Positions 4,121 through 22,635 of a DNA stretch of 58,113 nt are shown here, piece by piece. The first letter of the stretch is position 1. Each line of letters begins with the position of its first letter. This DNA is from a virus. Where the stretch lies: the IMG/VR virus record IMGVR_UViG_3300035529_000070, positions 1-58,113 of that record, one strand, 5' to 3'. The notes under the pieces are model-generated. The model was not told the origin of the DNA. It ran no database searches and saw only the letters and a list, made by a program, of their open reading frames with translations. The position numbers were made by a program, and so were the translations under genes.

Positions 4121-4228
4121 TAATAAAACCTCCCTAGTCTATGTTCATTATAGATTGTATCACGAAAGGTTGTTGTTGAACGGTAAAATAAAAATTAGAA
4201 AATCCTTGGTATATGTAACATGAAAAAA

Positions 4229-4263
4229 TTAGCGTAAGTCCAGACCAATCGGCTGGCAGCTAA
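4229..4263 (+). promoter_or_regulatory. structured 5' leader motif, copy 1
   Basis: ttagc-gtaagt-ccagacc(aatc)ggctgg-ca-gctaa, then aggagg. Confidence 0.6.
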
Positions 4264-4276
4264 AGGAGGACATTAT

Positions 4277-4456
4277 ATGTTTAATTTTTTAATTTCTGTT
4301 TTGTTTTCTTTATTGATGTTAGTTATTGTTGGACCTGCGTATTTATTATTATTGGTACCAGTATTATTTGTTCTTGTGTTTGTAGGACCGCTTGCAGCAC
4401 TTGGTGTGCTGCAAGTTGGAACAGTAGCAGTATTGCTACTAGTTCTGATAATATAA
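4277..4456 (+). CDS. 59-aa membrane peptide with no charged residues
   Basis: Hand-translated MFNFLISVLFSLLMLVIVGPAYLLLLVPVLFVLVFVGPLAALGVLQVGTVAVLLLVLII; aggagg RBS; followed by a terminator. Confidence 0.7.
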   Translation: MFNFLISVLFSLLMLVIVGPAYLLLLVPVLFVLVFVGPLAALGVLQVGTVAVLLLVLII

Positions 4457-4580
4457 AAAAGGGAGAGCGAAAGCTCTCTTTCTTTTTTTTACCTATATAA
4501 ACTAACATATAATAAAATGAAAAAAATCAAAAAATGTTGGTATATATAATATGTAAGGATTAGAAGATATTCTAGTCCAC

Positions 4581-4613
4581 CCTCGTAAGACCAGACCGCA
4601 AGGCTGGCAGAGG
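4581..4613 (+). promoter_or_regulatory. structured 5' leader motif, copy 2
   Basis: cctc-gtaaga-ccagacc(gcaa)ggctgg-ca-gagg, then aaaggag. Confidence 0.6.
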
Positions 4614-4627
4614 AAAGGAGATTTAAT

Positions 4628-4951
4628 ATGAATATAATAAATTGCACACCCCACCCATTAAATATTAAAAAAGGATCAGAAACAATAACCATCCAACCCT
4701 CTGGGATTATTCCCAGAGTAAAAACAGAAACAAAAACCGTTGAAGGACTTAACGGTTTTGAAGTTAAAGAATCAAGATCCACAGGTGTAGAAGGTTTACC
4801 TGCACCTGAAAAAGATACCATCTACGTAGTATCAGCAATGGTAGCACAAGCTACCGATAGAAACGATGTAGTATCCCCAAACACTGGGGAAGCTCTTCGA
4901 AATGAAAAAGGGCACATTGTGGCTGTGCCCGGATTCGTTAAGTACGTTTAA
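4628..4951 (+). CDS. conserved hypothetical phage protein (N-x-TPH...GLP family)
   Basis: IINCTPHPL, PSGIIPRV and GLPAPEKDTIYVVS motifs. Confidence 0.75.
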   Translation: MNIINCTPHPLNIKKGSETITIQPSGIIPRVKTETKTVEGLNGFEVKESRSTGVEGLPAPEKDTIYVVSAMVAQATDRNDVVSPNTGEALRNEKGHIVAVPGFVKYV

Positions 4952-4955
4952 GCCA

Positions 4956-5021
4956 CTGTCGAAACGAGGGTTCTGCCCTCGTCTGGTAGGGATGACCTCC
5001 TGCCACTGATGAGACAGGTCA
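4956..5021 (+). ncRNA. type II hammerhead ribozyme
   Basis: Stem II ctgtc/gacag; GAAA; stem III cgaggg/ccctcg; GUC cleavage triplet 4981-4983; stem I tggtagg/cctgcca; CUGAUGA core 5006-5012; loop I tgacc can pair with 3' ggtca. Confidence 0.93.
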
Positions 5022-5091
5022 GTAACAAAGGCTACGTGTCGGAAGCCTATAATTCTGACAAATCAATAATACCCGAAGGAGGGATTATTAT

Positions 5092-5391
5092 ATGACATTG
5101 AAAGATAAGGTAGATTCCATCAAATCATGGATGAAAAAGGAATATGAATTAAAAGTAGAAAGTATCCCAAAATCGTCTTTTGACGATTTTGAGGAAGAAT
5201 TAAAAGAAATTTTATTTCCGCATTTAATTGCGGAAGATGCAAAAAAGAAAAAAGCTCAAGAAATACTTGAGCTAGAAAGAATCAAAGACAAAATAGGCCG
5301 TTATGGCCTAGAAGAATTAAATGATTTTAACATTTTGTCATGGGCTGAAGAAATAGCCTTGGCAAATTTAAAGAAAATTTCAAGAGGCTGA
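5092..5391 (+). CDS. hypothetical protein
   Basis: aaggagg RBS; terminator follows. Confidence 0.75.
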   Translation: MTLKDKVDSIKSWMKKEYELKVESIPKSSFDDFEEELKEILFPHLIAEDAKKKKAQEILELERIKDKIGRYGLEELNDFNILSWAEEIALANLKKISRG

Positions 5392-5483
5392 ACACGCACC
5401 TCTTTTTTTACCTATACAGAAAATAAAAAATGAAAATTCTTGGTATATATAATATGTAAGGATTAGAAAATATTCTAATCTGC

Positions 5484-5516
5484 CCTCGTAAGACCAGACC
5501 GCAAGGCTGGCTGAGG
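5484..5516 (+). promoter_or_regulatory. structured 5' leader motif, copy 3
   Basis: cctc-gtaaga-ccagacc(gcaa)ggctgg-ct-gagg, then aaaggag; about 90 bp upstream of the start nearly identical to 4538-4627. Confidence 0.6.
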
Positions 5517-5530
5517 AAAGGAGTTTTAAT

Positions 5531-5935
5531 ATGAAATTAGTTAATTTTATGGAAATAATTGAAGGAGATTTTGATGAAAACTATGAAACAAGAGAAAAAG
5601 ACCAAAGAATTTGGGGTTCGAAAGGAAATTTCACATTTTTAAGAAATGATAGAGCAGACCAATATGAAATGTATTCAAAAGAACAAGCTGAAGAAATTAG
5701 GAGATTTATTGAGGATTATTACGAAAGATTTATGGTTGATCCAGAACAAGCATATGAAGACCAAGAACTTCATTATAATTTGGTTGGTTATAAAGAATAT
5801 AGAAACGGAGATGAAGAAGTAAAAAGAATTTCAATAGTTCCTACTGACGATGAAGATGAAAAAGATTTAAATCGTTATATAGAAAATTTTTTAAAAACCA
5901 ATGGCAGAGGAATATGTATAGAGTATATCAGATAA
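5531..5935 (+). CDS. hypothetical protein
   Basis: aaaggag RBS. Confidence 0.75.
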   Translation: MKLVNFMEIIEGDFDENYETREKDQRIWGSKGNFTFLRNDRADQYEMYSKEQAEEIRRFIEDYYERFMVDPEQAYEDQELHYNLVGYKEYRNGDEEVKRISIVPTDDEDEKDLNRYIENFLKTNGRGICIEYIR

Positions 5936-6062
5936 TCTTTTACTCAGCCCGATTTGTCGGGTGAAGAATAAAGACGGCGCACCACGCGCCTCTTTTTTTA
6001 CCTATACAAACACATGATCTTGTTGTATAATATAGAAGAATACTATATAAGGAGATGTTTAT

Positions 6063-22111: not shown

Positions 22112-22199
22112 TGGCGGAGATAGCTGGATTCGAACCAGCAAGTGGGATTAACCACGGTAGGTTAGCAACCTACTGCCTTACCAATTAGACTATATCTCC
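22112..22199 (-). tRNA. tRNA-Ser(GCT)
   Basis: Reverse complement GGAGATA...GTAGG-TTGCTAA-CCTAC, long variable arm, GGTTCGAATCC, TATCTCC-G-CCA. Confidence 0.95.
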
Positions 22200-22204
22200 T
22201 TTTA

Positions 22205-22635
22205 TGGTGGAGACGGCGGGACTCGAACCCGCGTCCGAACATTCAGTAACACCCTGGTTGTCTTTACAGCTTTAACTACTTTAATGTTCACCAATTCATG
22301 GTGTAGTTAGCCGAGAATTTGGTATATCTCTTTTATTTAGTCTAGCCTTTGAAAAGGATTTCCCCTCAAGAGATCAACAAAGTGCCAGAACGGTCTTTGT
22401 ATAATACGTATAGAGTGAGTCAGACCGCAGGCAATCTTCTATACGACAGTCTTGTTAAAATGGCAGTGTTATATTCAGTAGACTGTAACTTACTAATAAC
22501 ACTGAATGGCGCGACTAGGCAGCCATTGGCATTGGTTTTTCGTTGTTTATATTTAAGCAACTTGTTTTAAGAGGATAGTCAACCTCTGCTGCCCAAGGTG
22601 TTACCGATAATGCCCGTCGATACCAGGTCGTCCCC
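22205..22635 (-). ncRNA. ssrA: tmRNA (431 nt)
   Basis: 5' GGGGACGACCTGGTATCGAC; 3' GACGCGGGTTCGAGTCCCGCCGTCTCCACCA with G3:U pair; internal tag ORF (I)NNEKPMPMAA* at 22550-22515. Confidence 0.95.

Follow-up and report, generated by a model that had tools for sequence, protein, structure and literature searches.

Three short copies of a structured RNA leader, each placed directly before the Shine-Dalgarno (SD) sequence of a small gene, are found in the genome of an oil-field phage, raising the questions of whether the copies represent one conserved RNA, how widely this RNA occurs, and what it does at the ribosome-binding site. The stretch of DNA analyzed herein (the window; 58,113 nucleotides) covers the first third of a phage record of 183,532 bp, whose sequence is present mainly in oil-field metagenomes; no RNA datasets are listed among the sequencing runs containing it. 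The host is probably a member of Petrotogaceae because, among named matches, the ThyX protein of the phage is closest to proteins of Petrotoga, Tepiditoga, Marinitoga, and Defluviitoga. The phage also encodes a tmRNA with an adjacent tRNA (window 22115-22635, minus strand).

Organization of the motif cassettes in the oil-field phage

The features of the three cassettes in the window are as follows, with P1 denoting the outer stem.

4207..4222, plus strand: promoter-like element of cassette 1 (TGGTATAT family), putative promoter
4229..4263, plus strand: motif copy 1, P1 UUAGC/GCUAA, loop AAUC (model R1, 42.1 bits)
4264..4269, plus strand: SD AGGAGG, read from the sequence, 0 nt 3′ of P1
4277..4456, plus strand: 59-aa hydrophobic ORF behind copy 1, without family match
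4460..4481, plus strand: intrinsic-terminator-like hairpin and U tract, end of cassette 1
4538..4553, plus strand: promoter-like element of cassette 2, putative promoter
4557..4578, plus strand: 9-bp 5′ leader hairpin before copy 2, not part of the motif
4581..4613, plus strand: motif copy 2, P1 CCUC/GAGG, loop GCAA (R1, 43.7 bits)
4616..4620, plus strand: SD AGGAG of cassette 2, read from the sequence
4628..4951, plus strand: 107-aa ORF behind copy 2, phage family of unknown function (phrog_30542, phrog_21731)
5441..5456, plus strand: promoter-like element of cassette 3, putative promoter
5460..5481, plus strand: 9-bp 5′ leader hairpin before copy 3, not part of the motif
5484..5516, plus strand: motif copy 3, P1 CCUC/GAGG, loop GCAA, W = U (R1, 41.8 bits)
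5519..5523, plus strand: SD AGGAG of cassette 3, read from the sequence
5531..5935, plus strand: 134-aa ORF behind copy 3; a related strain has other sequence in its place (joint 5538-5993)
5976..5990, plus strand: intrinsic-terminator-like hairpin, end of cassette 3

The three copies claimed in an earlier note on this DNA were recovered at 4229-4263, 4581-4613, and 5484-5516; the core pattern has exactly three matches in the window (4234-4257, 4585-4608, and 5488-5511) and none in 100 dinucleotide shuffles of it, likewise with three mismatches allowed. The outer stems pair as described, UUAGC with GCUAA in copy 1 (4229-4233/4259-4263) and CCUC with GAGG in copy 2 (4581-4584/4610-4613) and copy 3 (5484-5487/5513-5516), and the proposed stem-loop forms in each copy (folding z = -2.2, -2.3, and -3.0). 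Each copy indeed lies between a TGGTATAT-type element (at 4207, 4538, and 5441) and the SD, with an ATG 18 nt 3′ of the CW dinucleotide of the motif. A genome scan revealed a fourth copy at G000:155681-155714, whose outer stem (UACC/GGUA) differs from both of the others, and the covariance model that had been called for, once built and run on the genome, returned exactly four copies including this one.

Every copy belongs to a cassette of the same order, i.e., a terminator, a TGGTATAT-type element, an optional 5′ hairpin, the motif, the SD, and a small gene. The TGGTATAT element, which would function as a promoter, represents a genome-specific promoter-like family with approximately 14 plus-strand copies, only four of which are accompanied by the motif. 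The additional 9-bp hairpin upstream of copies 2 and 3 lies outside the motif, and these two cassettes are 88% identical over 122 nt. In contigs of related strains, the cassette ends are retained and the gene between them is exchanged, with joints at 5538-5993 and 4565-4976; in one such strain, the 107-aa gene is exchanged between the 5′ hairpin and a type II hammerhead ribozyme (window 4957-5023, 42.1 bits), which is located between the 107-aa gene and a gene at 5092 that lacks the motif. The 107-aa protein has a paralogue encoded at G000:168531-168857 (32% identity), which is likewise without the motif.

A conserved sense-strand RNA fold anchored to the Shine-Dalgarno sequence

A metagenome scan that did not require an SD recovered contigs with several copies as well as single copies, in DNA of 25-58% GC, and viral scans with relaxed patterns gave many further copies. 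A structural descriptor run over 3.0 Mb of retrieved DNA yielded 117 distinct matches, 106 of them followed by an SD and a start codon, in 103 loci, versus two matches, neither followed by an SD and a start codon, in locally shuffled DNA. Some loci represent identical or close phages (63 copies are left after near-identical ones are dropped), and homologous copies share ancestry and are not phylogenetically independent; moreover, motif frequencies in the set are biased because most loci were retrieved by patterns containing the consensus and often also the SD.

The motif spans 33 nt and comprises, from its 5′ end, P1 (3-8 bp, free in sequence), RUAA opposite W, one G-C (or A-U) pair, a 1-nt bulge, and a 4-bp P2 that nearly always has C-G at its base. 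Above P2 follow a bulged A or AA and then P3, which has at least 2 bp, mostly CC/GG, and is capped by a free loop. The covariation previously claimed is evident in 61 aligned copies, wherein 10 of 11 pairs display two-sided changes and 96.6% of the alignment cells are paired, versus 68% upon shuffling and at most 44% with partners slid. Since this alignment was pre-filtered for pairing, reliance is placed on scans that left positions free. With their bases left free, the middle pairs of P2 are Watson-Crick in 37 of 45 matches (chance, 1/16), and both end pairs of P2 are complementary in 40 of 43. When the internal loop was left free, UAAG was found in 17 of the 18 matches having P1 and the following C. 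The bulged A regarded as fixed in the earlier note begins the bulge in 33 of 34 free-scan matches with P1 of at least 3 bp, the bulge itself being either A or AA. The internal loop is asymmetric and conserved as proposed, but it is not a 6 × 2 loop: the G of UAAG pairs with the C of CW (G-C in 98, A-U in 7, and G-U in 1 of 106 copies), UAAA variants have U in place of the partner C, and the loop is therefore RUAA opposite W plus the 1-nt bulge.

The terminal loop varies, as had been noticed. Among 51 four-base loops, 17 are GNRA and six are UNCG on the sense strand, with none on the opposite strand (p about 1e-17), a bias that favors an RNA fold of the sense strand over a DNA hairpin; an integron attC-like DNA hairpin was rejected on this basis. 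For the folded strand, G-U and A-C counts are 4 versus 3. The motif is hence a conserved sense-strand RNA fold with fixed unpaired letters. Diverged variants at L274:1318-1351, L278, and L280 have a G-C pair at the P2 base, a C-C mismatch at the P2 top, and a shifted P1.

This fold is anchored to the SD and the start codon, not to the promoter. In the scan without an SD requirement, an SD and a start codon follow 22 of 23 structure-valid matches versus 3 of 29 invalid ones (p = 2e-10). The P1 end is 0-5 nt from the SD in 96 of 106 copies, and the CW dinucleotide is 16-21 nt from the start codon in 94, whereas a -10-like box lies anywhere from 1 to 58 nt from the motif; a -10-like hexamer within 45 nt is found in 37% of copies versus 24% in shuffles, a modest enrichment. 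Approximately a dozen copies are intercistronic, and in five of them the upstream stop codon is the UAA of the motif itself. The pairing probability of the SD in the leader ensemble has a median of 0.30 and is above 0.5 in 31 of 106 leaders; only 42 of the 106 contain an anti-SD tetramer, and no alternative pairing that would hide the SD is conserved. Most downstream genes (93/106) combine a strong SD with an AUG start. Copies without an SD behind them are located at L310:5955-5984, L015:417-441, and L080:81-111.

In L127, L093, and L015, the motif is preceded at a distance of 0-10 nt by the end of a self-cleaving ribozyme of the pistol, twister, or HDV-like class. HDV-like ribozymes (drz-agam-1 model) are found at L015:451-509, L015:954-1012, and L036:1346-1404, those of L015 each following a shared 45-nt hammerhead-looking element, and the same phage family carries a conserved hairpin plus the motif before genes with UUG starts.

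Distribution and comparison with known RNAs

The motif family is real and well supported across unrelated phages. Carriers include 19 largely unrelated phage genomes, mostly complete, of 34-229 kb and 29-59% GC, with one to three copies as a rule in whole carrier records. Named hosts are Paenibacillus ginsengihumi (a prophage), P. rhizovicinus (the 229-kb phage-plasmid NZ_CP048288), Paenibacillus sp. OK003, and Cohnella; hosts span Bacillota and, probably, Thermotogota, and in a Chloroflexota genome one copy precedes ssb on a contig that looks mobile. One strong model match was obtained in 151 Chloroflexota genomes and none in 401 by a narrower pattern, in searches that scored few candidates and do not imply absence. 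The same limit applies to 150 Pseudomonadota and 150 Actinomycetota genomes, in which the motif was not found, and to 251 Bacteroidota genomes, in which matches were at chance level, since few candidates were scored in either case. Searches of cultured phages with short copies by BLAST, which is insensitive at such lengths, returned chance matches only, and the first narrow scans of viral and genome collections gave chance matches in GC-rich DNA without P1 or an SD.

A 13-kb gut phage family that fits the pattern lacks P1 and has another fold, and was left out of the motif set. At L102:5854-5879 and approximately 30 similar 13-kb gut phage loci, a different conserved structured leader precedes the SD, in which GGAC pairs with GUCC and GGCGGGCA with UGCCCGCC, while the linkers vary; this leader matches the motif pattern by chance and may itself be another undescribed RNA. 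The protein behind a copy at L242:8290-9117 is labelled as part of a Pacearchaeota bin, which is probably a mis-binned phage contig, and at L010:9606-11888 a ribonucleotide reductase fragment with an intein-like insertion adjoins thyX.

As the earlier note had suspected, the motif corresponds to no Rfam family: an Rfam 15 scan of the window identified no family covering it, 18 homologous loci yielded no match at E up to 10 except two weak, long eukaryotic models overlapping L022, and 47 further loci had no match over the motif at the gathering level. No description was found in the literature, although a prior listing as an uncharacterized candidate is possible among the RAGATH motifs outside Rfam or the 8,495 candidates of PMC10690425. 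A full-text search for core strings returned nothing relevant. As far as searched, therefore, the motif is an undescribed structured translation-leader element.

The 5′ half of the motif resembles a stretch of 23S rRNA, which we take to be helix 71, but the 23S bases pair upstream there and P2 of the motif covaries freely, and mimicry of the rRNA sequence was rejected. Likenesses to four further RNAs, i.e., the theophylline aptamer, the PyrR site, the S8 site of 16S helix 21, and Y RNA stems, were set aside, as they either hold for just the CCAG variant or involve another topology of the bulge.

Similar to the RAGATH, GP20-a/b, and int-alpA RNAs and the candidates of PMC10690425, the motif is an intergenic phage RNA, and similar to RAGATH-type motifs it occurs near twister, pistol, HDV-like, and hammerhead ribozymes; unlike GP20-a/b and int-alpA, which are Rfam phage leader motifs, it is fitted by no Rfam model at E up to 10. 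The operators of T4 gp43 and gp32 are autogenous, gene-specific, and bound by a phage protein that recognizes a hairpin loop (gp43) or a pseudoknot (gp32) (PMC3014915). The motif is likewise a structured phage mRNA leader element upstream of the SD and, as with gp32, has a link to ssb in two cases; by contrast, its terminal loop is free, its internal loop and bulges are fixed, the genes behind it are unrelated, and the searches revealed no phage protein common to the carriers. An autogenous operator stands upstream of the gene for its own binder, whereas the motif precedes 98 unrelated protein clusters, and ssb only twice. The PeSL stem-loops of the T4-type phages RB49 and phi1 are terminators at or around a promoter that end before the start site (PMC2839356). 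The cassettes of the oil-field phage share with them a repeated promoter, stem-loop, and SD before small exchangeable genes, but the motif is located 3′ of the promoter, abuts the SD, lacks a U tract, is not called as a terminator, and occurs without that promoter in other phages.

Two tertiary modules were also compared. The 11-nt receptor, which docks a GAAA tetraloop via an AA platform, has the strands CCUAAG/UAUGG, including fixed C-G pairs and a bulged U (bioRxiv 10.1101/2024.03.11.584472), and the motif similarly has a UAAG strand opposite A with its G paired, such that, by analogy, an AA-platform or UAA platform-like geometry is conceivable. However, a purine precedes UAAG in the motif, the short strand CW has no bulged U, 25 of 106 copies have another base in place of the opposite A, no GAAA partner is placed in cis, and the closing pairs of P1 vary (C-G 38, A-U 9, and G-C 9 of 61). 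Kink-turns are defined by a 3-nt bulge followed by tandem G-A and A-G pairs (PMC8191799). The motif resembles them in its asymmetric loop with three or four unpaired bases between two helices, but it lacks the tandem pairs, RUA being followed by A opposite W and then by a covarying Watson-Crick G-C/A-U pair, and identity with a kink-turn was rejected.

Downstream genes, candidate partner, and possible functions

The downstream genes are unrelated, in agreement with the earlier note: the 106 proteins form 98 clusters with a median length of 112 aa. Those with a family mostly function in recombination or replication (one each of RecT, YqaJ, Sak4, Gam, RadC, RusA, and HNH), SSB is downstream twice, in the unrelated elements L327 and L345, and many other downstream proteins are unknown. 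The motif is not tied to the 107-aa gene of the oil-field phage either, because relatives of this gene (L038) lack it. Pairs of carrier genomes have 0-7 protein clusters in common, and no family, whether searched by BLAST, profiles, or phmmer, is present in more than 7 of the 19 carriers, of which 7 records, including the oil-field phage genome, are <90% complete. DNA methylases and SSB, the latter in 6 of 19 genomes, have the widest distribution among these families. This pattern suggests that any partner is probably host-encoded, and a small, fast-evolving phage RNA-binding protein could evade such searches. The earlier proposal that the motif co-regulates early genes of the oil-field phage is too local, as most other phages carry just one or two copies and have no common candidate regulator, which again points to a host partner.

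The fixed unpaired letters suggest a specific contact, and the SD-locked spacing suggests an action on initiation. We consider it probable (approximately 0.75) that the motif acts on translation initiation through a bound partner. The compact leader RNA would present a surface composed of the RUAA/W loop, one G-C pair, the 1-nt bulge, and the bulged A four pairs up, standing immediately beside the SD, and a conserved host component, either the 30S platform or a host RNA-binding protein bridging to the platform, would bind this surface. A helix 0-5 nt upstream of the SD is positioned where the mRNA leaves the 30S platform, and it could therefore dock at this site or bear a protein that assists or clashes. 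The weakest step would be the last, in which the bound motif helps ribosome loading such that early and recombination genes in stand-alone cassettes are strongly translated. Enhancement is favored because unrelated early genes occur in stand-alone cassettes with an open SD and no cognate repressor; on the other hand, given the strong SDs and AUG starts of most downstream genes, an enhancer is not obviously needed. That the partner is host-encoded and the effect enhancing is plausible, at somewhat short of even odds. The distribution suggests that phages share translation control via a host component. In its most specific form, which is put forward tentatively, the 33-nt RNA would dock on the host 30S subunit or an initiation-linked protein and recruit ribosomes to the SD; it is an equally tentative part of this proposal that unrelated phages of several bacterial phyla carry the motif or have repeatedly evolved it. 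Such an RNA would be a portable bacterial translation enhancer, comparable in role to the cap-independent enhancers of eukaryotic viruses.

Alternatively, the motif might be a translational operator at which a bound protein blocks or traps the 30S subunit, silencing genes in lysogeny or late infection; this is possible and only slightly less likely than enhancement. Candidates for the protein are a host factor and, in view of T4 gp32, SSB. The SD-adjacent geometry equals that needed by a repressor operator, as in T4, where gp43 and gp32 repress via leader structures (PMC3014915), the motif precedes ssb in L327 and L345 and several recombination genes, and SSB is among the most widely shared families. 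However, no single phage protein occurs in most of the carriers, the operators known from phages are either autogenous and specific to one gene or, for RegA, unstructured (PMC3014915), unlike a motif spread over 98 clusters, and the ssb of the oil-field phage (G000:171309-171815) has no copy by the covariance model.

It is rather unlikely that the motif is a stabilizer of mRNA 5′ ends, in which the fold and the bound ribosome would halt 5′-to-3′ decay by RNase J or, in a variant, shield the ends created by promoters and ribozymes. The enrichment of -10-like hexamers, the ribozymes ending just before the motif, and the named Bacillota hosts are consistent with it, and Bacillota use RNase J. Nevertheless, a plain 5′ stabilizer, which the earlier note had listed, fits poorly because the promoter distance varies and the SD distance is tight; intercistronic copies, five with the motif UAA as a stop codon, also argue against it, a separate 5′ hairpin already precedes copies 2 and 3, and a plain stabilizer has no need for fixed unpaired letters across genomes of 29-59% GC. 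A riboswitch for a small ligand or metal governing SD access is improbable: a compact, SD-adjacent fold with fixed unpaired letters and an SD paired in 31 of 106 leaders would suit it, but no alternative pairing is conserved, the downstream genes have no metabolic theme, and no Rfam riboswitch matches.

A transcription antiterminator or RNase processing site has precedents in HK022 put and in the RNase III sites of T7 and SPO1, and early cassettes bounded by terminators, often with a promoter nearby, would accommodate either. Both are nonetheless scarcely probable: the antiterminator suggested earlier fits poorly, the motif being fixed to the SD and not to a promoter (1-58 nt) or terminator, and the helix above the internal loop has only approximately 7 bp, which is short for RNase III. 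Finally, the reading of the motif as a by-product of duplicated promoter cassettes, a PeSL-like recombination linker without a specific RNA function, draws on the 122 nt shared at 88% identity by cassettes 2 and 3 and on the exchange of genes between conserved cassette ends, but is largely refuted by recurrence of the motif with other promoters and compensatory stems, often as a single copy, in phages sharing 0-7 clusters, and by its strand-specific RNA-type tetraloops.

Known phage leader operators involve one gene and one phage protein, whereas this motif is independent of gene and lineage, and therefore a conserved host partner or a self-sufficient fold would be exploited at the ribosome-binding site. 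If enhancing, it would give phages a new way to control host translation and would provide an expression part ready for use in Bacillota and Thermotogota; if repressing, it would reveal a host signal read by many phages. The motif is directly testable, since it has only 33 nt, natural variation already marks its key positions, and elements of cultured Paenibacillus contain it. At L080:81-162, the SD-less copy stands 25 nt upstream of a second, SD-bearing copy, a tandem arrangement that may reflect cooperative binding.
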